Assembly: GCA_017619815.1 (NCBI GenBank)
Contig: JAFZRR010000047.1
Span: forward strand, 9,074 to 73,073
DNA: 64,000 nucleotides
Direction: 5' to 3'
DNA from: Bacilli bacterium
GTDB taxonomy: Bacteria; Bacillota_I; Bacilli_A; RFN20; CAG-826
Below, piece by piece: positions 29,685 to 64,000 of this stretch; positions within the stretch are counted from its first letter, which is position 1; each line of letters starts with the position of its first letter. The notes beneath the pieces are model-generated. The model did not search any database and was not told the DNA's origin. It saw nothing but the letters and a program-made list of their open reading frames with translations. Both the position numbers and the translations under genes were made by a program.

Positions 29685-29689
29685 TTAAC

Positions 29690-40009: not shown

Positions 40010-40129
40010 ATCAATATTATATACCTATTGTTTATTAACAATTTCTATCGCTTTTTACAAAATGTTGCTATAATCATAAACATTCAATATAAGTTTGTAC
40101 CGTTTCGGTACAGGAAAGGAAAAGAAATT

Positions 40130-41755: not shown

Positions 41756-41779
41756 TTTAAAAACGATATATTGAATACT

Positions 41780-41808
41780 AAGGCGTCTCGCAAGAGATGC
41801 CTTTCTTT
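41780..41808 (+). terminator. rho-independent terminator between the two M6 paralogues
   Basis: aaggcgtctc-gcaa-gagatgcctt, 10-bp stem with a GNRA loop, followed by tcttt. Confidence 0.7.
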
Positions 41809-41841
41809 ACAAATAAATACTTAGTTTTTAGAATTATATAT

Positions 41842-47889: not shown

Positions 47890-47909
47890 TTTAGTTAAAC
47901 TTATACAAG

Positions 47910-47940
47910 AAGCCCATCCTTATGGATGGGTTTTTCTTTT
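47910..47940 (+). terminator. rho-independent terminator after tuf
   Basis: cccatcc-ttat-ggatggg followed by tttttctttt. Confidence 0.8.
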
Positions 47941-47950
47941 GTCTTTATCG

Positions 47951-47959
47951 TGTTATAAT
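47951..47959 (+). promoter_or_regulatory. extended -10 box TGTTATAAT ending 6 nt before the ATG of the nuclease lipoprotein gene
   Basis: Read directly. No SD between the box and ATG 47966, so a leaderless transcript is plausible. Confidence 0.4.
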
Positions 47960-47965
47960 CTAGCC

Positions 47966-49102
47966 ATGAAATATAAAAGATTTCTTTTGATTGGTTCGAT
48001 AATTCCAATACTTTTATCTGGTTGTACAAAAGCGAATTCCTTTATCGGTGGAGATTTAATTTTCACGGAATTCTATGTCGGTGAAGTATACGCCAATAGA
48101 GCGGTGGAAATCGCTAATGTTGGAAACAAAGAATTAGATTTATCTAAATATCACATTTCTATCTTTAGAGATGGTGGACAAGAAAAAGCCAAACCCACAG
48201 ATAAAATCTATTTAGAAGGAAGTCTTCAACCTGGTGAAACATATGTCATTGCCTATAGCGAAGCGAAAGAAGAAATAAAAGCAAAAGCTAACTTAATAAG
48301 TGAAGATTTATTAAATGATGGTACTTTCCCGATGACTATTAATAATAAAAAGGAACAAGTTATCGATTATTTAGGATATCCTGGATATTTTTATAATCTC
48401 GCACAATGTGGGGACGCAGTAAGAAAAGTAGAGAAGTTAAGCGCGTCTACATATAACGCTTATGATTGGATTAGGTATCCAACAAGTAATTTAGACAACT
48501 TAGGTAATTTAAATTGTTTAGATAATAAAACAATCTTCAAAGGTCCAAAACTCACCACAGAAGACTTTAATAAACCATATGCAGTCAATAATAGCACTGC
48601 AGGTGGTGGCGCAGTGAAAGTATCACTTAATTACACAATCGATGGAGATACAACTAAATTTAACTTCCCTTCCTCTTTAGCGGAGTTTGGTTTATCAGGC
48701 AGCCAATCTGTTAGATATTACGGAATTAATACTCCAGAACTCCCTCATGGTGGTAATCCCGCAGATCCATATGGACCAGAAGCCAGGGATTTCACGAATA
48801 ATATCATTAACTCTGCAAAGCACTTTGTTGTGCAATCTATCGAAGGATACGAATTAACGGAAACATATGGAAGAATATTAGCCTATGTTTGGGTATCTTT
48901 TGAGAATAATCCAGAACCAAGTGACTATTTCTTACTCAATCACTACATCTTACAAAACGGTTTTGCTCGTGTTGGACGTATTGAAAGAGGTAGTTATAAC
49001 GATTTAATGCTTTATAATGGTATCAGTTACGTCGAATATTTCTATGACGCTCAACAATACGCAATCAGTAATAAATTACATATCTATGAGGAGGGTTTGT
49101 AA
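47966..49102 (+). CDS. lipoprotein: lamin-tail-domain (LTD) plus staphylococcal-nuclease (SNase) domain extracellular nuclease
   Basis: Lipobox LSGC. LIFTEFYVGEVYANRAVEIANVGNKELDLSKYHISIF matches the LTD pattern of NucH/ExeM-type nucleases. C-terminal TIDGDTTKF...VRYYGINTPE...YGRILAYVW is an SNase core. The ORF-track start 47837 overlaps tuf and is rejected. Confidence 0.75.
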   Translation: MKYKRFLLIGSIIPILLSGCTKANSFIGGDLIFTEFYVGEVYANRAVEIANVGNKELDLSKYHISIFRDGGQEKAKPTDKIYLEGSLQPGETYVIAYSEAKEEIKAKANLISEDLLNDGTFPMTINNKKEQVIDYLGYPGYFYNLAQCGDAVRKVEKLSASTYNAYDWIRYPTSNLDNLGNLNCLDNKTIFKGPKLTTEDFNKPYAVNNSTAGGGAVKVSLNYTIDGDTTKFNFPSSLAEFGLSGSQSVRYYGINTPELPHGGNPADPYGPEARDFTNNIINSAKHFVVQSIEGYELTETYGRILAYVWVSFENNPEPSDYFLLNHYILQNGFARVGRIERGSYNDLMLYNGISYVEYFYDAQQYAISNKLHIYEEGL

Positions 49103-50256
49103 TGAATAAGAATTATCGTGTTTTATTTTCTCTAGCTTCAGTTATTTTATTAACTGCTTGTAGCGCACCTAGTGGTTTAAAAGTTACTGGTTCTACTCAT
49201 TTTACTGAAGTACAAGAAGCATATTTAAAAAGTTCTAACATCGAAGATACAACTCCATATAACGGAAATATGTCTTTAAGCGCACCTGCTCCAACAGTAT
49301 TAAAGTGGAGTGGTAGCAGTCTTCAAGGATATGTAGTTAACATTTATAAAGATAAAGAACTTAAAGATTTAGCATTCAGCTACACCACAAAGAAAACGTC
49401 ATTAGAATTCTATAATGAAGAATTGAATAAAGTATATTATTGGAATGTTACAGATAAAGCCTCTAACAAAGTTAGCGAAACTCATGGTTTCCAAAACATC
49501 ATCAACGTTGCGGGTCCAAGAAACCTCAATATTGATGGAGTAGAAAACTTCAGAGATATCGGTGGTTGGGGTGTTTTAACTGACCAAGGATATCAACGTT
49601 ATATGAAACAAGGCATGGTCTATCGTTCAGGTAGATTTAACGAAGATAAAGCGGATGAAGTGAATATTACCGCAAGTGCGGAAGGTATTCGTGAAGCCAA
49701 AGAAAACCTCAAGATTAAAACTGAAATTGACTTTAGAAGAAGTAGTAATAATGAAATTGGTTCTTTAACCAGTTCCGCATTAGGTGAAGGTGTTAATTAC
49801 TATAATTTACCAATGTTATATGAAGGTAAGAATCTCCTCACCTTTACTGGTAAGTCTGGTAAAGATACATATGAATACAATAATCCAGCGATGATTAAAC
49901 AATTCTTTGAAATCCTTTCTGATGAGAATAACTATCCAGTGAATTTCCACTGTTCCATAGGAAAAGATAGAACTGGTTGTTTAGCCTTCTTATTAGAAGG
50001 ATTATTAGGATTTGATCAAGAAGTGATGAATAGAGACTACATGTTCACTAACTTCGCAAATGCCGGTATGTGTAAACTACAAGATGATATCTATGCTTCA
50101 AATAGATATGGCTATACATTAGAAAACTACGAAAACGGTAGCACAATTAACGAAAAGATTTATAACTATCTAAAAGATGTCATCGGTGTTGAAGCAGAAA
50201 AACTCGATAATATTATCTCTATTTTAAAAGTAGATTATATCGATCCTCTTAATTAA
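49102..50256 (+). CDS. lipoprotein with protein-tyrosine-phosphatase-fold (CX5R, Y_phosphatase3-like) domain
   Basis: Lipobox LTAC. VENFRDIGGW...VYRSGRF and the HCSIGKDRTG P-loop. Start overlaps the nuclease stop (TAATG). Confidence 0.7.
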   Translation: MNKNYRVLFSLASVILLTACSAPSGLKVTGSTHFTEVQEAYLKSSNIEDTTPYNGNMSLSAPAPTVLKWSGSSLQGYVVNIYKDKELKDLAFSYTTKKTSLEFYNEELNKVYYWNVTDKASNKVSETHGFQNIINVAGPRNLNIDGVENFRDIGGWGVLTDQGYQRYMKQGMVYRSGRFNEDKADEVNITASAEGIREAKENLKIKTEIDFRRSSNNEIGSLTSSALGEGVNYYNLPMLYEGKNLLTFTGKSGKDTYEYNNPAMIKQFFEILSDENNYPVNFHCSIGKDRTGCLAFLLEGLLGFDQEVMNRDYMFTNFANAGMCKLQDDIYASNRYGYTLENYENGSTINEKIYNYLKDVIGVEAEKLDNIISILKVDYIDPLN

Positions 50257-50272
50257 TATATAATTAATAGCA

Positions 50273-51445
50273 ATGAGCGAAAAGAAAACCAAAGTAGTGG
50301 AACTACGTCCACTCGGAAAATTTAAAAGAATACTATTATTCTTAGGTGATTACTTTATCACCTTTATCTTTTCTTTTATTCTTTTTAATTTAGCGGTTTT
50401 CCCATTAGCAAAAGTGATTTGTAAAACTAATCAGAAATCTCAAGAGATTGCAAATTTAGAAAAAGCCTCAAATGATTTACTAATCGGTAGTGGAATTCTC
50501 TTTGAAGATCCAGAAGGAACTTTTGAGTTCAAAGAGCACGTTAATTACACCTTTAAAGTGTTCCTTTCTTATTACGCTTTTGATGATGAAAATGTCGACA
50601 CAAATCATCCTCAATATGGTCATAAAGAAGAAAACGAAGTCCTTAGACATTACTATGTGACTTATATGCATGATACCACTGATGGTGCTGCTTCCTATTT
50701 AGCGGATTTTGCTAATGTCAATGAAGATGGTATGTTCACCATTGGTGAAACTATTAATGACATTAAATTAAAATCTGATTATAAAGAATTATTAGGTACA
50801 GAACTTTTAGAGCAAACTGATGAGAGCAAATACTCCGTCAATATGACCAATTTCCGTGATCATATTTTTGCGAAACTTTTCTATCTCCACGTCTATGAAG
50901 ACATCAATACAAATGACTTCGTAAAAGATGATATATCCTTTAAAGGATGTCTTAATAGAATTGGTGAAATTAATAACTATTTGAAATGGGTGGCAACATG
51001 GCCAGCGATTATTTCCGCAGTATTATCTTGGGGAATTGTTTACTTAATGTATCCAATGATTAATCGCGAAAGAAGAACGATGACAATGTCCGTGATGAAA
51101 CTTAATAAATTAAAGATGGTCTCAATGGTGGACATTAACCGCAAAGATGTCGCTCTTCAATCTTTCTATAATTTATTACTTTCAATGAGTTCAGTTTTGT
51201 TCTTGCCGGTCCTATATTTTGGTTTTGCGTATTGCTTTAACCTACCACTTTTATTCATTTTGACAGCTATCTCTATCGTTCTCACTCTTACGTCATTATT
51301 CTTTATCTTGTTTAATGAACACAATAGAAGCGGTAGTGATGTTCTTACTTTTTCTGTTGTTATACCAACAGAGGAAATTGATAATATATACAAAGAGAAA
51401 TTAAACGATGAAAGATCCGTATCAAGTCAAGGAACATCAGAATAA
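50273..51445 (+). CDS. RDD-like polytopic membrane protein with large extracytoplasmic insert
   Basis: KRILLFLGDYFITFIF N-terminal helix, about 190-aa soluble region, C-terminal TM bundle. RDD assignment is tentative. Confidence 0.45.
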   Translation: MSEKKTKVVELRPLGKFKRILLFLGDYFITFIFSFILFNLAVFPLAKVICKTNQKSQEIANLEKASNDLLIGSGILFEDPEGTFEFKEHVNYTFKVFLSYYAFDDENVDTNHPQYGHKEENEVLRHYYVTYMHDTTDGAASYLADFANVNEDGMFTIGETINDIKLKSDYKELLGTELLEQTDESKYSVNMTNFRDHIFAKLFYLHVYEDINTNDFVKDDISFKGCLNRIGEINNYLKWVATWPAIISAVLSWGIVYLMYPMINRERRTMTMSVMKLNKLKMVSMVDINRKDVALQSFYNLLLSMSSVLFLPVLYFGFAYCFNLPLLFILTAISIVLTLTSLFFILFNEHNRSGSDVLTFSVVIPTEEIDNIYKEKLNDERSVSSQGTSE

Positions 51446-52493
51446 CGAAGTACTTCGTGTCGAATATACTAGACCAAAGTTTTGGCATCGTTGCATGGCC
51501 AATTTTACTGACTTTGCAATTATGCTTGCGACATTCCTTGGTTTATTTATCGGTGTGAGAGCGATTGTTCAAAATACTCCTTCCTACAAAGCATCTCTAT
51601 CTAGGATGAGTGAAATCCAAATTCAATCTGGTTTATATGTGAGTTCTGAAGAAGGACAAACCGCGACAAAGAATATGGATCTCATTTATTACTGTGATAC
51701 ATATTTAGGTTCCTATGGAAAGTATTACGATATTAACGAAGAAATTACTGATCCAAAAACCAAAAACGCTTATGTTATTTTAGGACTTCAAAAATTCTTT
51801 ACATATTGTAGTGATGAAAACAATTGTCCAAATGAAAGATATGTCGAATTATTAACATATTTTGATGAAGCGAGATTAACACCAACTTTAAACGATATTC
51901 ATTATTACATCAAAGATGCGGATGATAAGATTATTCCTAATGAAACGCTTGCAGATAACGCAACATATTCCGATGAATATTACACCTATGTATTTAAACC
52001 ATTTATCGAAAAGAAAGCCTTACCATTTTTAAGCGCAAACGTTCCTGAATATAGAACTCTCAGTAAGGTCGATTATAACTATTTGTTATTCTTAGAATTA
52101 CCTGTCGCCTATGCTGTTGCGGGCATCCTTACTTATTTAGTTCCTCCATTATTCTTTAGAAGAGGAAGAAAAACCTTAGGAAAAGCTTTATACCATATCG
52201 GTTTAATCGATGGTCGTGTATTATCTCCAACCTTCCCTCGTTTCTTAGCGAGATTTGCCATCTTCTTCTTTGGAGAACTAATACTTTCATTGTTCTCGTT
52301 TGGCATACCCTACATTATTTCATTTTCTCTCATGGCCTTCAGCAAGAAAAAACAAGGATTCCCAGATTACATGCTTGGTTTATATGAGATAGATACTTCG
52401 AAGGCAAACATATATATGGATTATGTAGAGGCTCAACTCAAAAACGAGCTTCACGGCAAAGCAATTGACTTCAAAATGAAGGAGCGCCTATAA
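51408..52493 (+). CDS. RDD-family membrane protein with large extracytoplasmic insert
   Basis: FWHRCMANFTDFAIM (R..A...D) and RRGRKTLGKALYHIGLID, typical RDD features. The 38-nt overlap with the upstream gene makes the start uncertain. Confidence 0.5.
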   Translation: MKDPYQVKEHQNNEVLRVEYTRPKFWHRCMANFTDFAIMLATFLGLFIGVRAIVQNTPSYKASLSRMSEIQIQSGLYVSSEEGQTATKNMDLIYYCDTYLGSYGKYYDINEEITDPKTKNAYVILGLQKFFTYCSDENNCPNERYVELLTYFDEARLTPTLNDIHYYIKDADDKIIPNETLADNATYSDEYYTYVFKPFIEKKALPFLSANVPEYRTLSKVDYNYLLFLELPVAYAVAGILTYLVPPLFFRRGRKTLGKALYHIGLIDGRVLSPTFPRFLARFAIFFFGELILSLFSFGIPYIISFSLMAFSKKKQGFPDYMLGLYEIDTSKANIYMDYVEAQLKNELHGKAIDFKMKERL

Positions 52494-52512
52494 CGCTCTT
52501 TCTTTTTATTTG

Positions 52513-52541
52513 TTTACAAAACGCACATATTTGCCTACAAT
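52513..52541 (+). promoter_or_regulatory. candidate promoter of the 712-aa protein / ABC transporter operon
   Basis: TTTACA-N17-TACAAT, 33 nt upstream of ATG 52574. Confidence 0.45.
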
Positions 52542-52573
52542 ATGAGTGTATTAAAAATTAAGGCGGCTTAGAT

Positions 52574-54712
52574 ATGAATAATATTAAAAAAACCGTGTCT
52601 AGTTTCTTAGTTCTTGGTCTTTTAGCCAGCAGTGGTTTTTTTGCATTTAACGCATTAACACGTTCTTTTGATGCAACACAAGCTTCTGCACCAACTTTAA
52701 AGAGAAATGTCAAATCATCAGTGAGTAGTTTATCCGCTGATGATTTTTCTTCTGAAGTTGAGGCTAACCACGAAGAATTAGGCGTAAGTATTACTCAAAG
52801 TACGCTTACTGACACATCCCAATCCTTAACAGTTTCATTCAGATCCAAAACCCTTGCTGGTTTTAAAACCGCTATCGGAAACTACATCGTCGAAATCGAT
52901 GATGATAACTATTCCGGTGACGAAAACAACCCAGCGCCTGAAGGATACGACAAATTCAATGAAGAAACTGGTTTACCTGAATTTGAAGGAAAGATTGCCT
53001 TTATTGTCGGTTCCGTTAGTGAAAACAACAAGAGTGTCTATCTTCCATCAACATTCACCAAAGCAGGAAAATTCACTGCGAAAATCACCACAATCGGTGC
53101 AGGCTGTGTTTCTGCCGATGGTAGTGAATTCAATGGCCAAAACGTCTGGGCAGTTAATGGTGTAAGCAAAATTACAAACATTTACATTCCTGACACCATT
53201 GAAAAGGTTGAAGCAGACGCATTCAAAGGCGTTCCAACTGAAGGTGTTACCATTCACTATGAAGGTACAGAATTCTCCTCTAGCGTTTTCCAATCCGGTT
53301 GGACAGATGCCCCAACAACAGCTTTAGATGCTTCCACAACTAGCTACAACAAAAAAGCTAATAAGAAAGCCAATGCTGCTGCTGGTAAAGTCGAACTTCC
53401 TGATGCATTAGGTCGTCCAATCAACTTCATCCTTGGTTGCCAACAAGATGTTAACAATCCAAAGGTTGCGGATGAAAAATGCAATAGACCATTAGTTATT
53501 CAATACGACAAAATCACTAATGGAACTAGAGAAACCATTTTTGAAGAATTACCATTAACAAATACCACAAATAACCCATATGACTCCTGTGGTAAGCTCG
53601 CATCCATGAGCTACACAAGACAATTTGGTTATAAATTAGGTCCAGGCGAATCCATCGATGATGAATCCGTCGTCTTCCATAACATTATGAAAGCGGACGC
53701 TCAAGGTAACGTTGATGTTTCTAAAACATATTTTGCTAAACCAATGATTGGTTATTCCGAAAAGCAAAACATCACCAACTTAGTGAACTACAAAGCATCC
53801 ATGAATAGCACATTTGCTGGATACTCAATGTTCACATTAAAGATGGACAAAAACTTAAGTATCACTTCTGAAAGATATCCAGAGCCACACAGCTTATATC
53901 TCGATGTTAAGACTGATATTTATGAACAAAACAAAGCGGCTATCGAATCCGGAAAAACCAAGATTCGTTATTCCTTATATAACCTTTACAATTCCTCATT
54001 CCATTTCCAATATCTCGGAAAAGGTAATGAATTAAAGGATGTTGTCATCCCAGTCAGTTCCCTCATTTCCTATCAAACATTAGATAGCAATAAAGGTAAC
54101 TTAGTTTCTGTCTTATTAAAGGATTCTCAAATCGGTCCAGATTTCAAACCTAAAAAAGTCAGATTATTCGAATTACAAGACATTACCATTCAAATGGACT
54201 TATTAACCACAAGTGATTCTGGTTCTGCATCCATTTTAGGTAAATCATCAATCAGCTATAAATTCGCTTATATCACAGTTATCGATACAGAAAAGAACAT
54301 CTCAGTATTTAACTGGAATGTCTTTCTTATTGTTTTCTTCATCGCTTATGTCGTGGTTTATGCTGCCGCAGCATTCATCACATACAAAGTTATGAAAGAA
54401 AAATTCAAAAACGATGAATTTAGACGTGTTAACGACAAGAAATTCCTCAAACAAGCCGTCTTAGGTGGTTTAGGACTTGGCGTTGTCTTATGCGCAGTCT
54501 TATTCATCTATATGAGAACCGTTGGATTCAAGAACACAATCGTCGTCTTTAACCCAACCGATCCTCTATTAATCGCCTTCGCTATTGCCGGCATGATCAT
54601 CGTTGGCTACTTCATCGTCTACGTGATTAAACTCGTCAAAGCGGAACGCGAAAGAAGAAAAGCAATTCGTCTCAAACTCAATGAAGATGTCGCAGACGAT
54701 GGAACAAACTAG
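52574..54712 (+). CDS. large surface protein, N-terminal signal/anchor and three C-terminal TM helices, function unknown
   Basis: 712 aa. Beta-rich ectodomain with one BspA-LRR-like unit (ITNIYIPDTIEKVEADAFKGV). C-terminal helices at about aa 575-700. Codon usage like the neighbouring highly biased genes. Confidence 0.5.
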   Translation: MNNIKKTVSSFLVLGLLASSGFFAFNALTRSFDATQASAPTLKRNVKSSVSSLSADDFSSEVEANHEELGVSITQSTLTDTSQSLTVSFRSKTLAGFKTAIGNYIVEIDDDNYSGDENNPAPEGYDKFNEETGLPEFEGKIAFIVGSVSENNKSVYLPSTFTKAGKFTAKITTIGAGCVSADGSEFNGQNVWAVNGVSKITNIYIPDTIEKVEADAFKGVPTEGVTIHYEGTEFSSSVFQSGWTDAPTTALDASTTSYNKKANKKANAAAGKVELPDALGRPINFILGCQQDVNNPKVADEKCNRPLVIQYDKITNGTRETIFEELPLTNTTNNPYDSCGKLASMSYTRQFGYKLGPGESIDDESVVFHNIMKADAQGNVDVSKTYFAKPMIGYSEKQNITNLVNYKASMNSTFAGYSMFTLKMDKNLSITSERYPEPHSLYLDVKTDIYEQNKAAIESGKTKIRYSLYNLYNSSFHFQYLGKGNELKDVVIPVSSLISYQTLDSNKGNLVSVLLKDSQIGPDFKPKKVRLFELQDITIQMDLLTTSDSGSASILGKSSISYKFAYITVIDTEKNISVFNWNVFLIVFFIAYVVVYAAAAFITYKVMKEKFKNDEFRRVNDKKFLKQAVLGGLGLGVVLCAVLFIYMRTVGFKNTIVVFNPTDPLLIAFAIAGMIIVGYFIVYVIKLVKAERERRKAIRLKLNEDVADDGTN

Positions 54713-54732
54713 TTTATTGAAGGAGTTAAACT

Positions 54733-56643: not shown

Positions 56644-56654
56644 GGGGGACGAAT

Positions 56655-57788
56655 ATGGGCATTGAATTATTAAACTTTTTGAAAGGAAAGAAGAAACGTC
56701 AAGCCGGCGGTAACTCTATTGGGTTACAAACCGTCGAACCTGAAAAAGTTCCAGAATATACTCCTGGACTTCAAGAAGACGGCAAGACGATTGTAAGACT
56801 TACTTCTAATAAGAAGATTAAGAATCCTTACAAAGTCAGCGGTATTGATGACGTTGCCAGTAAGAATAACTGGAAAGCTTGGTTATACCTCGCCCCAGTC
56901 ATTATTCTTGTTGTCATCTTCCTTCTTTATCCATTAATTAACACGATATTTATTTCTTTCACAAAGAACTACAACTACACAACCGGTAAGTATGATGGAT
57001 TTACCTTAGAAAACTTCGGTATCATCCTCCATATGATTCCATATCAAAGTGCTGATGGTGCGGCGTGGGAAACAAGCTTTACAAGTAACGCTATTCCTAA
57101 CACCTTCATCCTCACATTCGTTACAGTTCCTGTATCAATTATGTTAGCTTTGATCATCTCTGTTGCTCTTAACAGCATCAAAGCTTTCCAAAAATTCTTA
57201 CAAACCGTCTTCTTCCTTCCATACGTTACAAACAGTATCGCTATTGGTATGGTGTTCTCCGTCTTATTTGACGATGCAGGTTTAATCAACTTCATCTTTG
57301 GATTACAACATGCCGGTGCCAATGGTGGACCAATGCAATGGATTTACAACACTCCAACATATATCGCTATGGTGCCATTATGTTTGTTCATCGTTTGGAA
57401 CAGTATCCCATTTAAGATTTTAATCTTATTATCTGGCTTACAAGGTATTGATAAACAATACTATCAAGCAGCCCAAATCGACGCTGCTCCAAAATGGAAA
57501 GTATTCGCAAGAATCACAGTCCCATTATTATCACCACAAATCCTTTATTTGATGATTACATCATTTATCGGTGCATTTAAGGAATACAACTCAATCGTCG
57601 CTATCTTTGGTAAGAAAGGTGAAACTTTAGCGGGTCAAAAGAACATGTACACCGTCGTTTTCTACGTGTACGATAACATTTCCGCGAACACATCATTCGC
57701 TGCCGCAGCGGCCGTGTTCCTCTTTGTTATTATCTTAATCTTTACATTCTTCCAATTCTGGGCGAGTAGTAAGAGAGTTCACTATTAG
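56655..57788 (+). CDS. ABC transporter permease (MalF/UgpA-like)
   Basis: EAA loop YQAAQIDAAPKWKVFARITVPLLSP, 6 TM helices, about 70-aa N-terminal extension. Confidence 0.85.
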   Translation: MGIELLNFLKGKKKRQAGGNSIGLQTVEPEKVPEYTPGLQEDGKTIVRLTSNKKIKNPYKVSGIDDVASKNNWKAWLYLAPVIILVVIFLLYPLINTIFISFTKNYNYTTGKYDGFTLENFGIILHMIPYQSADGAAWETSFTSNAIPNTFILTFVTVPVSIMLALIISVALNSIKAFQKFLQTVFFLPYVTNSIAIGMVFSVLFDDAGLINFIFGLQHAGANGGPMQWIYNTPTYIAMVPLCLFIVWNSIPFKILILLSGLQGIDKQYYQAAQIDAAPKWKVFARITVPLLSPQILYLMITSFIGAFKEYNSIVAIFGKKGETLAGQKNMYTVVFYVYDNISANTSFAAAAAVFLFVIILIFTFFQFWASSKRVHY

Positions 57789-57799
57789 GAGGTATCAAC

Positions 57800-58897
57800 A
57801 TGTTATTTGAAGAAGAATTAGAACAACAAGTAGTTGAAGAAGAACAAGTTGAAGAAACTCCTTTAGAAGAAAAACCTGAAGTCGTGGAAGAAGTTCATCA
57901 AGAACAACCACAACCAGAAAAAGAAGAAAAAGCTCAATACATCGACTTTGCTTCTGTCAAAGTTAATAACAACTTAGTCTTATCAATTACAGAAGCTAGT
58001 AAGACAGTTGACCAAATTAAAAAGGCTGAAAAAGTGACACACATCATCTTTACCGCCTTAACATATTTGTTCATCGTTGCATTAGCGCTTATCGTGATCT
58101 TCCCATTCTATTGGATGATCATCACATCATTAAAAACATATTCCGAAATTACACAAGAACAACAAACATTCTTCCCAAGCGTTGTTATGTGGACTAACTA
58201 CGTGTATGTTTTCCAACACTTTAATTTCTTAACTTATATGAAGAACACCATCGTGGTCGCAATCTTCTCCACAATTGGTACTCTTCTTACAACTATCTTC
58301 GCCGCCTTTGCATTCTCTAGATTGCAATTCAAAGGTAGAGAAGCATTATTTATGGTCTTCTTAGCCACAATGATGATTCCTGGTGAAATGATGGTTATTT
58401 CTAACTACATCACAGTCGCATCCTTTGGATGGATTACAAGTTCAACCCATACACAAACACTCATGGAAGCTTATGCCGCTATGATTGTCCCATTCTGGGT
58501 CAGCGTCTTCCACATCTATTTGTTAAGACAGAACTTCAAACAAATTCCAAACGAGTTATACCTTGCCGCGAAAGTTGACGGTAAGAGCGACTGGAGTTAC
58601 TTATGGAAAGTCATGGTTCCTCTTGCGGCACCAACACTTATCTCCATTACAATCTTAAAATTCATGGGAACTTGGAACTCCTATGTGTGGCCAAACTTAG
58701 TCACTGAAATTCCACAATACCGTTTGATTTCTAACGGTCTTCGTGAATCAAGCTTCCAAAACGCTGACTTAGGTACCATTGAATATGGTTATCAAATGGC
58801 AGCGTCCATCTTGGTCACCGTGCCTCTATTCTTACTCTTCATCTTCTTCAGAAAGTACATCATGAAGGGTGTTGGCAGAGCCGGTATCAAGGGTTAA
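57800..58897 (+). CDS. ABC transporter permease (MalG/UgpE-like) with acidic N-terminal extension
   Basis: EAA loop YLAAKVDGKSDWSYLWKVMVPLAAP, preceded by an E/Q/P-rich region of about 80 aa. Confidence 0.85.
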   Translation: MLFEEELEQQVVEEEQVEETPLEEKPEVVEEVHQEQPQPEKEEKAQYIDFASVKVNNNLVLSITEASKTVDQIKKAEKVTHIIFTALTYLFIVALALIVIFPFYWMIITSLKTYSEITQEQQTFFPSVVMWTNYVYVFQHFNFLTYMKNTIVVAIFSTIGTLLTTIFAAFAFSRLQFKGREALFMVFLATMMIPGEMMVISNYITVASFGWITSSTHTQTLMEAYAAMIVPFWVSVFHIYLLRQNFKQIPNELYLAAKVDGKSDWSYLWKVMVPLAAPTLISITILKFMGTWNSYVWPNLVTEIPQYRLISNGLRESSFQNADLGTIEYGYQMAASILVTVPLFLLFIFFRKYIMKGVGRAGIKG

Positions 58898-58963
58898 TTA
58901 TGATTTAATTAGCCCGTCTGCGGTAATTAAATATATTTATTAAATGACTTTTAGGAGGAAATT

Positions 58964-60391
58964 ATGAAAACTAGTCGTTTATTCGCAGTTTCAGCAGCAG
59001 CCTTAATGGCGATGTCTCTTGCTGGATGTAGAGGTGGTAACAATAATATCGAAATCGTTATTTGGACCACATACAATGACACATATCAAACAATCATCAA
59101 CAACGCGATTGATGAATTCAAAGAATTAGAACCAAATGTCACTGTTAAAAACATCAAACAACAAGGTTCTTATCAAGATTTAGCCAAAATGTGTGTTGAT
59201 GGATTCGCCGTTGACAACTATCCAGATATGGTTGCAGCCTATCCAGATTCCGTTTCTGACTTCATCAACAACGCAAAAGCGTTAAATATTCAACCTTATA
59301 TGGAAAATGCCGAATATGGTTGGACCGAAGATGATATCAATGATATCCCAGAAGCATACATTAAATTAGGTCAACAATATGCCATTCCAGGTACATATTC
59401 CTTACCAGCTTCCAAATCCACAGAAGCTATGTACTATAACCAAGACGTCCTCGTTGGTTTAAACCTTTCCGCTATTGATTCCACAATTAACGGTGGTCAA
59501 CCATTAACAGACGACTACTTACAAAACTTAACATGGGACGAATTATTCGAAAAATTAGTTCCAGCACTTGATCAATATGACCAAGCACAAGATAGTGCTC
59601 ATAAGATTATCGATCGTGACTCATACGAAGACTGGGCATGGGTTGGTTATGACTCCGATGATAACTTATTCATCACATTAGCTGAACAATATGGCTATGG
59701 TTATACATCAGTCGATCCAGTTACCGGTAAAGGTAAAATCGAATTCAATAATGATGGTATGAAGAACCTCATGAAGAAATTCAAAGGTTATTATGACAAT
59801 CATTACTTCACCACAAAAGGTGTCTTAAAACAAAACGTTAACTACCGTTCTACAGTCGATGCTATGTTATTCTCTATCGGCTCCACAGGTGGTGTTAAAT
59901 ATCAATTCGCAGATGCAACCGCACATAACGTCGGTGTTGCAAAAATCCCACAAGCGAACTTATCCAATCCAAAACTTATCTCTCAAGGTCCAGATTTCGC
60001 ATTCTTAAATCACAATAACGACAAGAGAGCAGAAGCCGTTTGGAAATTCTTCAAATTATTCACAAGCACAAAATACAATACCGCTTGGGCAATGACCACA
60101 GGCTACTCCCCAGTTAGATATTCCGTTCTTGAAACAGAAGAATACGCTGATTACTCCGATTGGGAATCTAAAGATGAACACACACTCGATAGATTAACCG
60201 CTCTTAACGCAAACTATGCCGCCAGTGTCGGTGATTATCAATTCACATCAGCAGTCTTCAAAGGCAGCTCTGAAGCTCGTGTTCAAGTTGGTACAATCTT
60301 CGCCGCATGTGTCGCAGCAGGCGCAAACTTAGATGCACAAATCGATGGCATTTTCCAAACCGCAGTCGATAATACAAAACTCAAAATGTAA
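58964..60391 (+). CDS. ABC transporter substrate-binding lipoprotein (family-1 SBP)
   Basis: Lipobox LAGC. Collinear with the next gene (GSYQDLAKM, AAYPDSV, GTYSLPASKSTEAMYYN, YFTTKGV, SIGSTGG, GYSPVRYS). Confidence 0.8.
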   Translation: MKTSRLFAVSAAALMAMSLAGCRGGNNNIEIVIWTTYNDTYQTIINNAIDEFKELEPNVTVKNIKQQGSYQDLAKMCVDGFAVDNYPDMVAAYPDSVSDFINNAKALNIQPYMENAEYGWTEDDINDIPEAYIKLGQQYAIPGTYSLPASKSTEAMYYNQDVLVGLNLSAIDSTINGGQPLTDDYLQNLTWDELFEKLVPALDQYDQAQDSAHKIIDRDSYEDWAWVGYDSDDNLFITLAEQYGYGYTSVDPVTGKGKIEFNNDGMKNLMKKFKGYYDNHYFTTKGVLKQNVNYRSTVDAMLFSIGSTGGVKYQFADATAHNVGVAKIPQANLSNPKLISQGPDFAFLNHNNDKRAEAVWKFFKLFTSTKYNTAWAMTTGYSPVRYSVLETEEYADYSDWESKDEHTLDRLTALNANYAASVGDYQFTSAVFKGSSEARVQVGTIFAACVAAGANLDAQIDGIFQTAVDNTKLKM

Positions 60392-60417
60392 TTAAAATTC
60401 ATAGGAGGTAATAAACT

Positions 60418-61878
60418 ATGAAATTAAAAGCTAGAGCTTTATTACTCTTGCCACTCCTTGCTGGTGGTCTCTCTAGTGTTACAGCTTGTAACTCTTATAA
60501 AGGCCTTACCATTAAGTTCTGGCATACATTTGGCCAAACTGTTCAAGATGGTTTAAAACCAAAAATTAACGAGTTCGTTAAAGCCGTCAAAGAACAAGAA
60601 GGCGTGGATTTAAGAATCCAAATGGTCTATCAAGGCAGTTATGATGACATTGCCAAGAAGATCGCTGATGGTTTCTCTGTCCAAAACACCCCAACACTCG
60701 CTGTTGCTTATCCAGATAACGTTGCCGACTATCTCGAAGTTGGTAAATCCGCGAAAAAGGAATTCGTCGTTAACTTAGAAAAATACATTAACGATGAAAA
60801 AGTCGGATTTGGTAAAGAAGCATGGTTAGGCGATGTCGCTGGTAAAGATGAAACAGACTTCGTTGAAGACTTCTATCAAGAAGGCAAAAACTACGCTGTT
60901 GAAGGTACATATTCCTTACCATTCATGAAATCCACTGAAATCATGTTCTACAATTTGACATTACTTCAATATTTCATGCCTGGCTTTAACGCTGAAGTCG
61001 GTAACTCTGAAGAAGCCATCAAAGCTTATATGTCCACAATCTCATGGGATACATTCATGGATCTTTGCCAATATATCGAAGCCAATAGAGCAAGTGTTTC
61101 TGATACACTCGAAGTTGCTGCTTGGTACGATAGTGATGCTAACTTCTTAGTCAGCAAGATGTTCCAAAACAACATCGGTTATTCCGCTGTTAATGATCAA
61201 GGTAAAGGTAGCATTTTATTCGCTGATGGCGAAAACTACACCAAATTAACCGCTTTATTAGAAGAACTTAATACTCAATATCAAGCTAACTATTTCACCA
61301 CAAAAGGTATCAAGAATACCTATGGTAGTGATTTCTTCACTGGTGAAAAGTGTGTCTTCTCTATCGGTTCTTCCGGTGGTTCTGGTTATAACTTCCCACA
61401 AGCTGAAGCCTTTGAATTAGGCGTTTGTAAAGTTCCAGCCAGTAACAATAATCCTTTATATGTTTCTCAAGGTCCAACACTCGCAATCTTTAACGATAAA
61501 GGTTTGAGTAGTGAAAAGAATGAACAAACAACCTTATATGCTTGGAAATTCTTAAAATACATCACCAACGGACAAGCTAATGCTGAATTATGTGTTAACG
61601 GTTCTGAAGGTTATGCTCCAGTGCGTTATAGCGCATATGAAACAGAATTCTTCCAAGAATTTATGGAATACGGCGAACAATATGCAAAATGTTATGACGT
61701 TATCGTCAATGACATCAACATTAACGCTGGTTACTTAGTGGCACCAGCCTTCAAAGGTAGTGCGGCATTAAGAGATGAATGCGGTTCCTTATTAACCGCA
61801 GCCATCAAAGCCACAGATCCAAGTACAATCCCATCATTAATCGATCGTTGTGTTTCTAACGCTAGACAAAAATTCTAG
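60418..61878 (+). CDS. ABC transporter substrate-binding lipoprotein, paralogue
   Basis: Lipobox VTAC. Shares the motif series of the upstream SBP (GSYDDIAKK, VAYPDNV, GTYSLPFMKSTEIMFYN, YFTTKGI, SIGSSGG, GYAPVRYS). Confidence 0.8.
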   Translation: MKLKARALLLLPLLAGGLSSVTACNSYKGLTIKFWHTFGQTVQDGLKPKINEFVKAVKEQEGVDLRIQMVYQGSYDDIAKKIADGFSVQNTPTLAVAYPDNVADYLEVGKSAKKEFVVNLEKYINDEKVGFGKEAWLGDVAGKDETDFVEDFYQEGKNYAVEGTYSLPFMKSTEIMFYNLTLLQYFMPGFNAEVGNSEEAIKAYMSTISWDTFMDLCQYIEANRASVSDTLEVAAWYDSDANFLVSKMFQNNIGYSAVNDQGKGSILFADGENYTKLTALLEELNTQYQANYFTTKGIKNTYGSDFFTGEKCVFSIGSSGGSGYNFPQAEAFELGVCKVPASNNNPLYVSQGPTLAIFNDKGLSSEKNEQTTLYAWKFLKYITNGQANAELCVNGSEGYAPVRYSAYETEFFQEFMEYGEQYAKCYDVIVNDININAGYLVAPAFKGSAALRDECGSLLTAAIKATDPSTIPSLIDRCVSNARQKF

Positions 61879-61889
61879 GAGGAAATTAT

Positions 61890-63329
61890 ATGAATAAATT
61901 TACCTCATTTATTAAAACAGTCGTCTTTTCCGGCATGTTAATAGCTGGTACTGCAGGCGTTGCTGCTTGCGGTCCAAAATTCCATGACTACACAAAAGAC
62001 GGTTCTGTCACATTGCAACTAGATTTCCAAGGCAAAGACTTCTATGTCGACGGCATTGGCGAATTTGAACTTGCACACACAATCGATGGTGATACCGCTC
62101 ACTTTACACCAAAAGTGGACAGCACCCATCAAGGATTAATGAAAGCCCGTTTCTTCGGTATCGATACACCAGAATCCACTGGTAAAGTCCAAGAATACGG
62201 TCATGCTGCTAGCAATTTCACTAAAGAAAAACTCAATCAAGCCAAAGAACATGGCACAATTGTCATTTCTTCCCCACAAGATCACTATGGCGCACCAAGT
62301 CCAGATAGCACTGGTAGCCGTTACGTTTCTCTTGTATGGATTAATACAGAAAAGAAAAACGCATCACGTGATGAATTAGTGTTATTAAACCTTTGGATTG
62401 TTCAAGAAGGTTTAAGCTGGGTCAAAAACGTTGGCGATATGCCACAATATGAAAAGACTTTCTACGCTGCTGAAGAACAAGCGAAGAAATTCAAACTCAA
62501 CTTACACTCTGGAAAACCAGATGGTGATTTCAACTACGGCGACTATATAGAAACATCATTATTAGATGTTAAACAAGAATTAGCCTTATGTTTAGCGGAT
62601 CCAGATCGTGTCAATCAATTTGATAACCAAAAGATGAGAATCCAAGGTACAGTTTGTGGTTTTTCTAACCACATCTTGTATTTACAAGATTTCTGCTACT
62701 ACGATCAAAATGATGAATCTAAAGGTGGCGAAATGTGTGGTATTAACATCTTCGTCGGTATGGGTTCCATTAGTAGCAAATACACAAAACTCAATACTTA
62801 TATTGAAGTCTGTGGTTTAGCTCAATACACTGAAAACTATGGTTTCCAAGTGACCGATACCCAAGGTCGTTTCCCAGTTGGTAGTGCAACAAGTCCAAAT
62901 GATGCTCGTGTTATCTTTACACCTGAAGAAAATGCGGACACAGAACACAATTTAGTGCCAGCGCAATACACAATCGCTGGAATGAACGCTGTTGCTGAAG
63001 CAACTGATCCATACAATCTCGAATGCTTAAATACCGCTGTTGAAATCACTGAAACACTAACATGTTCAAGAGCATACCCATCCGAGAGCGGTAAAGAAAT
63101 GACTCTTATTTTCAGTGGCGCCAGCTTCAATGTCTATGTTCCATTTAACTATCATGGTAATCCTGATTTACCAGCAGATCGTTGGAATGAAGCTTCTGAC
63201 TTTGAAGGAAAACAATTCACAGTCAAAGGCGTCTATGTCTTCCATAAGACACAATCTGGAAACATTAAATTCCAAATCGTCCCAAACGGCGAAAAAGACC
63301 TCGTTTGTCTTAACCCAACAGGTGAATAA
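61890..63329 (+). CDS. lipoprotein: SNase-domain membrane nuclease with beta-rich (possibly OB-fold-like) C-terminal region
   Basis: Lipobox VAAC. HTIDGDTAHFTP...ARFFGIDTPESTGK...SRYVSLVW is an SNase core. The C-terminal region (MRIQGTVCGF...YIEVCGLAQY) is OB-like by eye only. Confidence 0.75.
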   Translation: MNKFTSFIKTVVFSGMLIAGTAGVAACGPKFHDYTKDGSVTLQLDFQGKDFYVDGIGEFELAHTIDGDTAHFTPKVDSTHQGLMKARFFGIDTPESTGKVQEYGHAASNFTKEKLNQAKEHGTIVISSPQDHYGAPSPDSTGSRYVSLVWINTEKKNASRDELVLLNLWIVQEGLSWVKNVGDMPQYEKTFYAAEEQAKKFKLNLHSGKPDGDFNYGDYIETSLLDVKQELALCLADPDRVNQFDNQKMRIQGTVCGFSNHILYLQDFCYYDQNDESKGGEMCGINIFVGMGSISSKYTKLNTYIEVCGLAQYTENYGFQVTDTQGRFPVGSATSPNDARVIFTPEENADTEHNLVPAQYTIAGMNAVAEATDPYNLECLNTAVEITETLTCSRAYPSESGKEMTLIFSGASFNVYVPFNYHGNPDLPADRWNEASDFEGKQFTVKGVYVFHKTQSGNIKFQIVPNGEKDLVCLNPTGE

Positions 63330-63348
63330 TATTTAGGAGGCAAGATAT

Positions 63349-63843
63349 ATGTATTGTTATCATTGCGGAAAAGAAATTGATGAACACAAACTTGAAGCGA
63401 AACAATCTTCTTTAAGTTTAAAAGATGAAAATGGTGAACTTAGAGAAATTGATAGCGACGCACAAGTGGCTTATGTATGCCCACAATGTGGTCATTTAAT
63501 CCGTGCTAATGCAACTCCTGAAGATTTAAAAGCTTTATCTCAAGCAAGCCATAGCCAACTTCAAAGAGGCGCAAATAGCTTTGCTAGAGGTATGGCGTTA
63601 AACCTTATTGGTTTAATCATAGGCATTCTTGCCATTTCATTCTTACTATTATCCTATCAAAGTGATGGTGGTGGAAAGACCCTTAATCCAGGTAAATCCA
63701 CCTTCCTTATCTTTGTGATAATGGGTATTGTTGCTGTTATTCTTTTAGGATTCGGTATTGTCTCTACTGTCATTGGTCTCAGAAAAAAAGTGACATACAC
63801 CAAATTACTAAAAGATTTAAATAACAAAACCTTTGTTCAATAG
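63349..63843 (+). CDS. zinc-ribbon membrane protein
   Basis: CYHCG...CPQCG pair, two C-terminal TM helices, AGGAGG RBS. Confidence 0.5.
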   Translation: MYCYHCGKEIDEHKLEAKQSSLSLKDENGELREIDSDAQVAYVCPQCGHLIRANATPEDLKALSQASHSQLQRGANSFARGMALNLIGLIIGILAISFLLLSYQSDGGGKTLNPGKSTFLIFVIMGIVAVILLGFGIVSTVIGLRKKVTYTKLLKDLNNKTFVQ

Positions 63844-63892
63844 GAGCAAAGAAATTATAATAATTTCATAAGTAATAAAAGAGGAGGGTTTT

Positions 63893-64000
63893 ATGAAAAA
63901 ACAGATTTTATTACCTTTCGTCTTATTAGGTTCCTTAGGAATGGTTGCTTCCTTAGCGGCTTGCCAACCAAAAGAAGCGAAACCTGAAGAAGGTTATGGC
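63893..64000 (+). CDS. lipoprotein, N-terminal fragment (continues beyond the window)
   Basis: GAGGAGGG RBS. MKKQILLPFVLLGSLGMVASLAACQPK with lipobox LAAC. Confidence 0.5.
   Translation, partial: MKKQILLPFVLLGSLGMVASLAACQPKEAKPEEGYG

Follow-up and report, generated by a model that had tools for sequence, protein, structure and literature searches.

In mycoplasmas, an SNase gene directly adjoins the genes of an ABC transporter, in an operon with the order lipoprotein, SNase, long ATPase and two permeases. The lipoprotein of this operon, MslA, has been reported to bind single- and double-stranded DNA (PMC4045577), and the operon has been named a putative nucleotide transporter (PMC3585158, PMC4045577), so that the general idea considered here is not new. 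The Mycoplasma pneumoniae genes MPN134-136 have also been labelled as a putative glycerol-3-phosphate transporter (PMC3178575). In Mycoplasmopsis cynos, the operon is followed after a few genes by three DHH/DHHA1 genes, at a distance of about 3.5 kb from the second permease gene. Enzymes of the DHH/DHHA1 family degrade short oligonucleotides.

Here we describe a related cassette, found directly downstream of tuf in a 64,000-nt stretch of DNA (the window). The host is an uncultured Mollicutes-related bacterium from the gut or rumen, and its relatives bear names such as Ca. Enteromonas, Enterosoma and Scatoplasma. A sequence-only reading of the window had suggested that the 16 kb downstream of tuf could encode one pathway leading from nucleic acid degradation through dephosphorylation to import.

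Layout of the locus and extent of the conserved core

The region contains the following features.

47908-47935, plus strand: terminator-like hairpin after tuf (12-bp stem, then a T run)
47966-49102, plus strand: g1, predicted accessory lipoprotein nuclease with lamin-tail (LTD) and SNase domains (Pfam; lipobox LSGC)
49102-50256, plus strand: g2, predicted accessory lipoprotein phosphatase of PTP fold (Y_phosphatase3, Pfam 98.5 bits; lipobox LTAC)
50273-51445, plus strand: g3, membrane protein, distant paralogue of g4 (RDD-type; hhalign)
51408-52493, plus strand: g4, RDD-family membrane protein (Pfam RDD 41.3 bits, cutoff 24.1)
52478-52541, plus strand: terminator-like hairpin (52478-52502), then promoter-like TTTACA-17-TACAAT (52513-52541), just before g5
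52574-54712, plus strand: g5, 712-aa membrane protein, first core gene (AF2 mean pLDDT 80)
54733-56643, plus strand: g6, UgpC/MalK-type ABC ATPase (Pfam ABC_tran)
56655-57788, plus strand: g7, permease, UgpA/MalF-like (BPD_transp_1, 63 bits)
57800-58897, plus strand: g8, UgpE/MalG-like permease extended at its N-terminus by an acidic stretch (BPD_transp_1, 58 bits)
58964-60391, plus strand: g9, lipoprotein substrate-binding protein (SBP) 1, phospho-ligand branch of CUT1 (SBP_bac_8, 73 bits)
60418-61878, plus strand: g10, lipoprotein SBP 2, paralogue of g9 (33% identity)
61890-63329, plus strand: g11, predicted core lipoprotein nuclease, SNase domain (46.7 bits) followed by a C-terminal region of about 270 aa
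63349-63843, plus strand: g12, small protein, last core gene, two CxxC pairs (Zn-ribbon)
63893-64000, plus strand: g13, beginning of a further lipoprotein gene, truncated where the window ends (lipobox LAAC)

Between 47966 and 64000 there are thus 13 ORFs, not the fourteen counted earlier, the last of them incomplete. Their common strand and short or overlapping junctions (-38 to +80 nt) had been described correctly, as had the six lipoboxes (LSGC, LTAC, LAGC, VTAC, VAAC and LAAC), which are found exactly at the genes named. Because the hairpin at 47908-47935 falls within a longer GTG-started ORF (47837-49102), g1 likely starts at the ATG at 47966. Profile searches recovered all the domains that had been anticipated, i.e. 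LTD, SNase, Y_phosphatase3, RDD and SBP_bac_8.

Of 61 related species-level genomes with room for the eight genes g5-g12, 60 carry the complete set in collinear order, with median junctions of 11-54 nt. The first, g5, occurs in 79 of 80 loci, and the ATPase gene follows it after a median of 18 nt; g12 was found in 64 loci, always immediately 3' of g11. Both g3 and g4 accompany the core in 45 of the 62 loci with room for them. Upstream of these, the genes are lineage-specific: g2 is present in 15 of the 80 loci, and g1 has an orthologue in one other locus only (L005). Moreover, the terminator-like hairpin and promoter-like site ahead of g5 separate g1-g4 from the genes that follow, at a position which coincides with a break both in conservation and in codon usage. 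The proposal of 16 kb conserved and transcribed as a single unit could not, therefore, be upheld; what is conserved as a unit is g5-g12, which g3/g4 usually accompany.

As a measure of codon bias we used C/(C+T) in two-fold NNY codons, for which the window median is 0.39. Values of 0.48-0.65 were obtained for g5-g11, to be compared with 0.59-0.79 for the genes of L11, L1, L10 and L7/L12, rpsL and tuf, 0.60 for fusA and 0.50 for rpsG, whereas g1-g4 and g12 reach just 0.30-0.34. The C-ending bias reported from 52574 onward is thus real for g5-g11, but does not extend to g12. Together with the promoter-like site before g5, the codon usage of g5-g11 may be regarded as a sign of high expression.

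The protein encoded by g5 is predicted to span the membrane with one helix near its N-terminus and three near its C-terminus, and to have an outer domain rich in beta structure; its Pfam match (LRR_5) is weak and below cutoff, and a fold search in the PDB gave no meaningful match (TM-scores < 0.1, except for one weak unrelated hit with TMt 0.23). For g12, Pfam returned only weak Zn-ribbon matches, and two hydrophobic C-terminal segments can be read as transmembrane helices. The description of g3 and g4 as two RDD-like proteins holds because, although g3 had no match in the Pfam search, its family aligns with that of g4 (hhalign probability 96%, E 2e-9, 290 columns). In 30 related loci, the position of g13 is occupied by a family of large lipoproteins, up to 917 aa, without Pfam domain.

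Predicted nucleases and phosphatase, and the genes upstream of the core

That SNase-domain lipoproteins sit at both ends of the region was confirmed, but the two differ in their catalytic residues. g11 retains all the SNase catalytic and calcium-binding residues (D21, R35, D40, T41, E43 and R87), which are kept in 64-66 of the 66 aligned sequences (65 orthologues plus the window copy); with the Staphylococcus aureus reference included, 64 of the 67 aligned sequences have a lipobox. Its profile matched only SNase structures in the PDB, and g11 looks like an active nuclease. In g1 (LTD 36 bits, SNase 45 bits), D21, R35, T41, E43 and R87 are kept, but the calcium-ligand position D40 is Asn.

The phosphatase-fold lipoprotein predicted from its CX5R motif was likewise recovered. 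The motif, HCSIGKDRT (HCX5R), is kept in those g2 orthologues that were checked, and the best match among solved structures is 8dhi; the substrates of the nearest characterized relatives are protein or inositol phosphates.

In other species, the region upstream of the core contains Endonuclease I with Big_2 (8 loci) or 5'-nucleotidase-like genes (7-8 loci) instead of the Y_phosphatase3 and LTD-SNase genes mentioned above. This recurrence of four unrelated families with related chemistry favours a nucleic-acid theme, the counts being a simple tally over phylogenetically related loci rather than a formal enrichment test. In some species the same region also holds unrelated genes (NAD salvage, ZIP, PFK, GpsA and Fic). 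No homologue of a glycerophosphodiesterase (UgpQ/GDPD) was found in any of the 80 loci. We read g1 and g2 as exchangeable, lineage-specific accessories that are probably transcribed apart from the core, as part of an upstream unit.

The transporter, its binding proteins and the proposed function

The MalK/UgpC-type ATPase and two permeases were identified as expected, and their NCBIfam matches are all UgpC/A/E-like and all below their cutoffs: g6 scored 344 bits against NF008653 (UgpC-like), and the top matches of g7 and g8 are UgpA and UgpE respectively. Full-length g6, kept in relatives at 55-98% identity, has an insertion of about 285 aa in the helical subdomain (approximately residues 108-395), outside which it is 44% identical to Escherichia coli UgpC, and a C-terminal regulatory domain. 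Homologues of the ATPase in mycoplasmas and entomoplasmas, that of M. cynos among them, carry an insertion at this position too, and the M. cynos ATPase is 44% identical to g6 over the C-terminal 270 aa, while the M. cynos permeases are 30% and 29% identical to g7 and g8. The suggested kinship with the mycoplasma operon is therefore well founded for the ABC part; the SNase gene stands beside the ABC genes in both systems, but the gene order differs.

The two binding proteins are indeed paralogous, even though g10 had no match in the Pfam search. Both are closest to a Thermus protein (PDB 7C0x series), whose entries are titled 'dinucleotide-binding protein of ABC transporter endogenously bound to uridylyl-3'-5'-phospho-guanosine', at an identity of only 20-22%. 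The E-value was 2.5e-8 for g9, and 9e-12 (single sequence) or 2.4e-18 (profile, with UgpB proteins next at about 1e-4) for g10. Eight residues were mutated in the 7C0x structures (Y56, F79, N81, S127, Y224, T240, Y246 and Q274); their g10 counterparts (respectively Y75, Y98, D100, S172, Y302, S318, Y324 and Q351) are invariant or nearly so across 42 family members. In g9, the four residues of the phosphate clamp (Y, S, S, Y) and the equivalents of D100, Y324 and Q351 are retained, with Asn at the Y302 position. The likeness of both proteins to the dinucleotide binder provides independent evidence in favour of the nucleic-acid theme.

On these grounds, we propose that the cassette serves to scavenge nucleic acids at the cell surface and to import short nucleotide fragments, a reading to which we assign a probability of about 0.6. 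Membrane-anchored g11 would cut extracellular DNA or RNA to 3'-phosphorylated mono-, di- and oligonucleotides, as expected from SNase-family chemistry; the lipid-anchored g9 and g10 would capture short phosphodiester-containing fragments, as their specific likeness to the Thermus protein suggests, and the CUT1-type importer (permeases g7/g8, long UgpC-like ATPase g6) would bring them in. Beside this system, g1 would act as an extra nuclease, and g2 may strip terminal phosphates off the nuclease products. We infer the order of degradation, dephosphorylation and import, as well as the enzyme activities and the transported ligand. What survives of the earlier pathway is thus its nucleic-acid theme, favoured by the binding proteins, by the upstream nucleases and nucleotidases and by the absence of GDPD, but not its extension to the whole 16 kb.

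A Ugp-type importer that takes up glycerol-3-phosphate or glycerophosphodiesters for the supply of membrane lipids or carbon, with nucleases that are unrelated or only release phosphate, appears unlikely, although it is the best of the alternatives. The ATPase and permeases match UgpC, UgpA and UgpE best, the homologous MPN134-136 bear the glycerol-3-phosphate label mentioned above, and the phosphate clamp is common to glycerol-3-phosphate and glycerophosphocholine binders (UgpB and the Mycobacterium tuberculosis protein). In a Foldseek search with the g10 AF2 model (pLDDT 85), E. coli UgpB came third and scored nearly as well as the dinucleotide-binding series at the top. In the profile search, however, UgpB proteins lagged behind the dinucleotide binder by 14 orders of magnitude in E-value. 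E. coli UgpB lacks counterparts of g10 Y302, Y324 and Q351, its E66, which contacts the glycerol hydroxyls, is replaced by an invariant Pro in the g9/g10 family, and its second clamp residue W172 is Tyr. In addition, GDPD is missing from all the loci, while nucleases and nucleotidases recur.

Less probable still is phosphate scavenging, in which nucleic acids would be broken down outside the cell to phosphate and nucleosides, and the transporter would import some other organophosphate or be only loosely linked. Phosphatase or 5'-nucleotidase genes do stand beside the core in many loci, a phosphonate-type SBP gene and ABC genes lie downstream of tuf and ahead of the core in loci L054 and L062, and the SBPs are clearly predicted to recognize a phosphate group. 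Nevertheless, phosphatases are accessory, whereas the SNase and the SBPs belong to the core; the locus showed neither Pst/Pho genes nor Pho-type signals, and the SBP pocket residues fit a dinucleoside monophosphate binder rather than a simple phosphate ester binder. Finally, a conventional CUT1 importer of sugars or oligosaccharides, with its nuclease neighbours a coincidence of genome organization, is very improbable: sugars are the cargo of most characterized CUT1 systems, sugar-binding SBPs appear further down the Foldseek list and the closest PDB chains were labelled 'sugar ABC transporter' by their depositors, but the two-Tyr, two-Ser clamp, a mark of phospho-ligand binders reported to be absent from sugar binders (PMC12718374), is invariant here, in more than 60 species the SNase gene keeps a fixed place 11-15 nt past the gene of the second SBP, and the mycoplasma SNase gene also directly adjoins homologous ABC genes, though in a different order.

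Read as a scavenging system for nucleic acids, the cassette adds a new variant to a kind of system that has been proposed, and is still unproven, in mycoplasmas. Its binding proteins could help settle the cargo of the mycoplasma-type transporter.

Gene content and conservation of the locus

Downstream of rpsL-rpsG-fusA-tuf, a run of 13 ORFs (fourteen in the count of the sequence-only reading) extends from 47966 to the end of the window, with junctions of -38 to +80 nt:

47966..49102, plus strand: g1, LTD-SNase lipoprotein
49102..50256, plus strand: g2, Y_phosphatase3 lipoprotein
50273..51445, plus strand: g3, RDD-type membrane protein
51408..52493, plus strand: g4, RDD-type membrane protein
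52574..54712, plus strand: g5, membrane protein of 712 aa
54733..56643, plus strand: g6, UgpC-like ATPase
56655..57788, plus strand: g7, permease
57800..58897, plus strand: g8, permease
58964..60391, plus strand: g9, substrate-binding protein (SBP)
60418..61878, plus strand: g10, SBP
61890..63329, plus strand: g11, SNase lipoprotein
63349..63843, plus strand: g12, Zn-ribbon protein
63893..64000, plus strand: g13, lipoprotein gene cut by the window end

Lipoboxes are present at exactly the six genes for which they had been claimed (g1, g2, g9, g10, g11 and g13), and the domains proposed from the sequence were borne out by Pfam and NCBIfam searches, which assigned LTD and SNase to g1, Y_phosphatase3 to g2, RDD to g4, SBP_bac_8 to g9 and SNase to g11, and classified g6 as a UgpC/MalK-type ATPase and g7 and g8 as MalF/G-type permeases.

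The bias towards C-ending codons, which had been described as running from 52574 onward, holds for g5-g11 (0.48-0.65, with a window median of 0.39) but not for g12, which, like g1-g4, lies at 0.30-0.34. The corresponding values are 0.59-0.79 for the genes of L11, L1, L10 and L7/L12 and for rpsL and tuf, 0.50 for rpsG and 0.60 for fusA. The break in codon usage between g4 and g5 coincides with a terminator-like hairpin after g4 (52478-52502) and with a TTTACA-17-TACAAT site located directly past this hairpin, ahead of g5. Another terminator-like hairpin (47908-47935) follows tuf; the longest ORF of g1 (47837-49102, from GTG 47837) overlaps it, and with ATG 47966, the likely true start of g1, the product has a normal lipoprotein signal peptide. 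Neither g1 nor g5 is preceded by a riboswitch or leader that Rfam recognises, the only two Rfam matches in the window being the L10 leader ahead of rplJ (29687-29777) and one tRNA gene (11293-11365). Just upstream of rpsL, at 40028-43386, are encoded two adjoining proteins with weak Peptidase_M6 (InhA-like) matches, the second of which has a lipobox-like LLSGC.

A scan of one genome per species returned 80 loci with a full-length relative of the ATPase (55-83% identity), all of them from gut, rumen or faecal MAGs, some named Ca. Enteromonas, Alloenteromonas, Enterosoma or Scatoplasma. The genetic code is the standard one, since the long ORFs stay open when TGA is taken as a stop. When the window proteins were compared with the 80 loci by tblastn, the neighbourhood conservation expected for a 16-kb nucleic-acid harvesting island was found for a part of it: 60 of the 61 loci with room for them had all eight genes g5-g12 in collinear order (median junctions 11-54 nt), and g3 and g4 lay just upstream in 45/62, whereas g2 was found in only 15 of the 80 loci and an ortholog of g1 in one other locus only (L005). 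This pattern of conservation, together with the hairpins, the promoter-like site and the codon break, divides the 16 kb into at least two units: an accessory unit, g1-g4, of which g3 and g4 are widely kept, and a conserved core, g5-g12, which probably continues into g13.

A mobile element, a phage or a horizontally acquired island was considered and rejected, given the host-like codon usage of the highly expressed type and the fixed place after tuf, which lies at most 9.3 kb upstream of the core in 30 of the 46 loci with enough upstream sequence. In L005 (17074-19659) and in 29 other loci, the Zn-ribbon gene is followed by a member of a large lipoprotein family (up to 917 aa, without any Pfam domain), as it is at 63893-64000 of the window; this family may also belong to the surface system.

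The importer and its binding proteins

Together with an SBP of cluster D, the MalK/UgpC-type ATPase g6 and the two MalF/G-type permeases g7 and g8 make up a transporter set of the CUT1 type (TC 3.A.1.1). Outside an insertion of about 285 aa after residue 107, the ATPase shares 44% identity with E. coli UgpC, and its C-terminal 120 residues align with the UgpC regulatory domain. The insertion falls in the helical subdomain (about residues 108-395), and both its length and its sequence are conserved throughout the clade. At the N-terminus of g8 (57800-57990), the first 60 or so residues, before the first transmembrane segment, are acidic, Glu/Gln-rich and of low complexity.

The two SBPs are paralogs (33% identity), and both are kept in 69 loci, which suggests that g9 and g10 recognise different ligands. 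For both, the best PDB matches by sequence are the entries of the 7C0x series (E 2.5e-8 for g9, 9e-12 for g10), against which a profile of 42 SBP sequences gave E 2.4e-18, with UgpB proteins next at about 1e-4. The AF2 model of g10 (pLDDT 85) likewise retrieved these entries as top Foldseek matches, with a target-normalised TM-score of 0.79 and E. coli UgpB closely behind. They carry the title 'dinucleotide-binding protein of ABC transporter endogenously bound to uridylyl-3'-5'-phospho-guanosine'. This UpG (U3G) binder of Thermus thermophilus (7C0F series; Chandravanshi et al., FEBS J 2021, as cited in PMC12718374) is thus the closest solved relative of both SBPs, at 20-22% identity; g9 and g10 are 70-80 residues longer and lipid-anchored, and g9 differs at one Tyr.

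The presumed contact residues of the U3G binder were taken from the mutant names in the titles (Y56, F79, N81, S127, Y224, T240, Y246 and Q274), all eight residue identities being recovered when chain and residue numbering are taken to differ by a constant two. They align to Y75, Y98, D100, S172, Y302, S318, Y324 and Q351 of g10, each identical or a conservative replacement and with little or no variation within the family; g9 has Asn at the Y302 position. Two Tyr and two Ser that hold a phosphate are common to UgpB, the M. tuberculosis glycerophosphocholine binder and the U3G binder, but not to sugar binders (PMC12718374). This clamp is formed in g10 by Y75, S172, S318 and Y399, which are invariant in 42 sequences including g9 and which, in an alignment with the actual E. 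coli UgpB sequence, correspond to Y42, S121, one Ser of the TTASS motif and Y323. Outside this clamp, the U3G binder's F79, N81, Y224, Y246 and Q274 are matched by Y98, D100, Y302, Y324 and Q351, three of them identical and two conservative replacements, and Y302, Y324 and Q351 are without a UgpB counterpart. In turn, UgpB E66, which binds the glycerol hydroxyls, is replaced by an invariant P99; W169 is kept as W236, and W172 is replaced by Y237. To judge from these residues, the SBPs appear to have a pocket of the dinucleotide-binder type and not of the UgpB type.

The general reading that we favour is nucleic-acid scavenging with import of short nucleotide fragments, to which we would assign a probability of about 0.6. 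The importer shares its subunit architecture and the phosphate clamp of its SBPs with E. coli UgpBAEC, the CUT1 glycerol-3-phosphate importer, and import of glycerol phosphates in the manner of Ugp would therefore agree with the clamp and with the family matches. However, the present ATPase differs by its 285-aa insertion, neither E66 nor the second clamp Trp is kept in the SBPs, the locus includes nuclease genes, and no homolog of the glycerophosphodiesterase UgpQ was found in any of the 80 loci. With the pocket residues, the missing UgpQ and the fixed nuclease gene all at odds with it, Ugp-type import appears unlikely.

Surface enzymes and membrane proteins

The nuclease gene of the core, g11, starts 11 nt past g10 and encodes a lipoprotein (lipobox VAAC) with an SNase domain (46.7 bits). 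The residues of S. aureus nuclease assessed through PF00565 were the Ca-binding D21, D40 and T41 and the catalytic R35, E43 and R87. All six are present in g11, and the set is kept in 64-66 of the 66 sequences of the g11 alignment; the SNase domain of g1 keeps five of the six, D40 being replaced by Asn. For the C-terminal region of about 270 aa of g11, the only PDB matches of a profile built from 26 sequences were to SNase, and none gave a fold for the region itself. Like ExeM, g1 has LTD and SNase domains, with a weak match to the N-terminal region of ExeM, but the endonuclease/exonuclease/phosphatase domain of ExeM is absent. Both g1 and g11 differ from ExeM-type enzymes and from staphylococcal thermonuclease in being lipoproteins, and g11 also in its extra 270-aa C-terminal region. 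The putative phosphatase g2 has HCSIGKDRT at residue 283, and the HCX5R(S/T) loop reads HC[SA][IE]GKDRT in 7/7 orthologs checked.

The two RDD-like proteins recognised from the sequence are confirmed on different grounds: g4 matches RDD in Pfam (PF06271, 41.3 bits, cutoff 24.1), while g3, which has no Pfam match and no significant BLASTP similarity to g4, qualifies solely through a relationship visible by profile-profile comparison of the two families (hhalign, probability 96%, E 2e-9). In a more distant long-ATPase locus, L084 (4875-6978), a 378-aa protein paired with an RDD protein is encoded about 2 kb upstream of the ATPase (589 aa), and the RDD pairing may thus reach beyond the clade of the window. 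For g5, a confident AF2 model (pLDDT 80) displays a beta-rich outer domain, one N-terminal helix and three C-terminal helices, all four predicted to be transmembrane; a Foldseek search of the model against the PDB produced generic beta-sandwich matches with TM-scores below 0.1, except for one weak unrelated match (TMt 0.23).

The region between tuf and the core is variable. It contains an Endonuclease I with a Big_2 domain in 8 loci, Metallophos/5'-nucleotidase-like genes in 7-8 and the Y_phosphatase3 lipoprotein in its 15, with the LTD-SNase as a further alternative occupant, and most of the copies of these accessory enzymes that were examined begin with a lipobox or a hydrophobic, signal-peptide-like segment. 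That four unrelated enzyme families with related chemistry adjoin the same core is suggestive, as an informal tally. In more distant species, unrelated NAD salvage, ZIP, PFK, GpsA and Fic genes also occur in this region. In L030 (5995-7392) and L038 (6141-7433), a 5'-nucleotidase-like gene lies between g4 and g5, where the window has the terminator and promoter-like sites. An Mbeg1-like (lipase-type) protein is encoded at 16352-17491 of the window, and a member of its family is located between tuf and the core in L007 (986-2050), beside 5'-nucleotidase-like and Endonuclease I genes.

The recurrence of phosphatases near the core could also be read as phosphate scavenging, the cargo of the ABC transporter being unrelated. 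Nevertheless, the phosphatases are accessory, whereas the SNase and the SBPs belong to the core, and we regard this explanation as improbable. Plain sugar import is contradicted by the invariant phosphate clamp and by the fixed position of the SNase gene, and may be considered very improbable.

Kinship with the mycoplasma operon and proposed function

The parallel drawn from the sequence with mycoplasmas, in which an SNase lipoprotein is encoded beside a UgpC/A/E-like ABC transporter, was borne out by homology of the ABC part. The hit lists of protein searches with g6, g10 and g5 were filled by close relatives, and the link was found only by an exhaustive search of 50%-identity representatives followed by cluster look-up. 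Among these representatives, many ATPase relatives of 480-800 aa have an insertion in the same place and match g6 on either side of it, the named ones being from Mycoplasmopsis cynos (696 aa), M. felifaucium (697 aa) and Williamsoniiplasma (611 aa); in the mycoplasma homologs the insertion is of other sequence and length. The neighbourhoods of the named relatives (L082, L085 and L086) comprise a Lipoprotein_X/10 (MG185-type) lipoprotein, an SNase, the long ATPase and two permeases, and the M. cynos proteins share 44% (ATPase) and 29-30% (permeases) identity with g6-g8. Known examples of this operon are M. genitalium MG185-189, M. pneumoniae MPN133-136, M. agalactiae MAG_5030-5070 and the loci of M. 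hyopneumoniae mhp379, M. gallisepticum MslA/MGA_0676 and M. bovis MBOVPG45_0307-0311.

Both systems have an SNase lipoprotein adjoining the importer, a long UgpC-like ATPase, two MalF/G-type permeases and surface lipoproteins as presumed binding proteins, and the role proposed in mycoplasmas is import of nucleic-acid precursors (PMC3585158, PMC4045577, PMC9740415). They differ in gene order, which is membrane protein, C, A, E, SBP, SBP, SNase in the window and lipoprotein, SNase, C, A, E in mycoplasmas, and in the binding proteins, which are two canonical SBP_bac_8-type proteins in the former and Lipoprotein_X/Lipoprotein_10 (MG185/MslA/P80-type) in the latter. The SBP profile gave only weak motif matches to the M. 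cynos lipoprotein (KST, FSIGS; E 0.03 in a 14-sequence search), and against NCBIfam lipo_P68 g9 and g10 scored 25.6 and 36.9 bits, far under the cutoff of 200. No counterparts of g3, g4, g5 or g12 were detected in the comparison with M. cynos. Moreover, the present host is not a Mycoplasma, but an uncultured commensal with the standard genetic code.

The name of nucleotide transporter has been applied to the SNase-ABC operon since 2007-2013, and other work has made it a glycerol-3-phosphate transporter (PMC3585158, PMC4045577, PMC3178575), MPN134-136 being drawn as the latter (PMC3178575). We found no report in the literature of a measured substrate. For mycoplasma proteins, there are reports of nuclease activity and of binding to polynucleotides (PMC3585158; PMC4045577, citing Masukagami 2013), and MslA is reported to bind single- and double-stranded DNA (PMC4045577). 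In M. cynos (L082, 17566-20488), the operon is followed, a few genes further on and some 3.5 kb beyond the second permease, by three tandem DHH/DHHA1 (NrnA-like) genes, an arrangement that would fit import of short oligonucleotides followed by intracellular breakdown. No nanoRNase (DHH) gene was present near the cassette among the ten other window ORFs scanned.

Enzymes of the SNase family yield 3'-phosphorylated products. In the scavenging that we favour, the anchored SNase g11, with its intact catalytic residues and this known chemistry, would cut external DNA or RNA to 3'-phosphorylated mono-, di- and oligonucleotides, and the accessory nucleases and phosphatases, where present, would extend or trim the cutting. 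Short phosphodiester fragments would then be bound by g9 and g10 and imported by g7/g8/g6, and a cytoplasmic nanoRNase would complete their breakdown, a last step suggested only by the M. cynos context and general knowledge of DHH proteins. A more specific proposal, which we advance tentatively, is that of a dedicated importer of di- and short oligonucleotides, in which two U3G-type SBPs feed a Mollicutes-type long-ATPase ABC transporter, with g3, g4, g5, g12 and the ATPase insertion as hitherto undescribed parts of a surface complex for the capture and processing of nucleic acids. If this is true, the long-disputed mycoplasma transporter MG187-189/MPN134-136 would have the same class of substrate.

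The type of system is therefore already known from mycoplasmas, where its substrate is putative. What is new is a fixed, reordered cassette in a large uncultured clade with the standard genetic code, in which canonical U3G-type SBPs replace the MG185-type lipoproteins, four extra conserved membrane proteins are present, and exchangeable accessory enzymes are encoded upstream of the core; a limited literature search found no paper describing such a cassette. Because the SBPs are of the ordinary soluble type, with a pocket that appears to match that of a solved protein holding a dinucleotide, the question of the substrate is directly testable with recombinant g9 and g10, and g3, g4, g5, g12 and the 285-aa ATPase insertion are candidate new components. 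The same type of transporter is a fixed and apparently highly expressed cassette across a large uncultured gut and rumen clade, and if these abundant commensals feed on extracellular DNA or RNA, this would bear on nucleotide cross-feeding in the gut and on ways of bringing them into culture.
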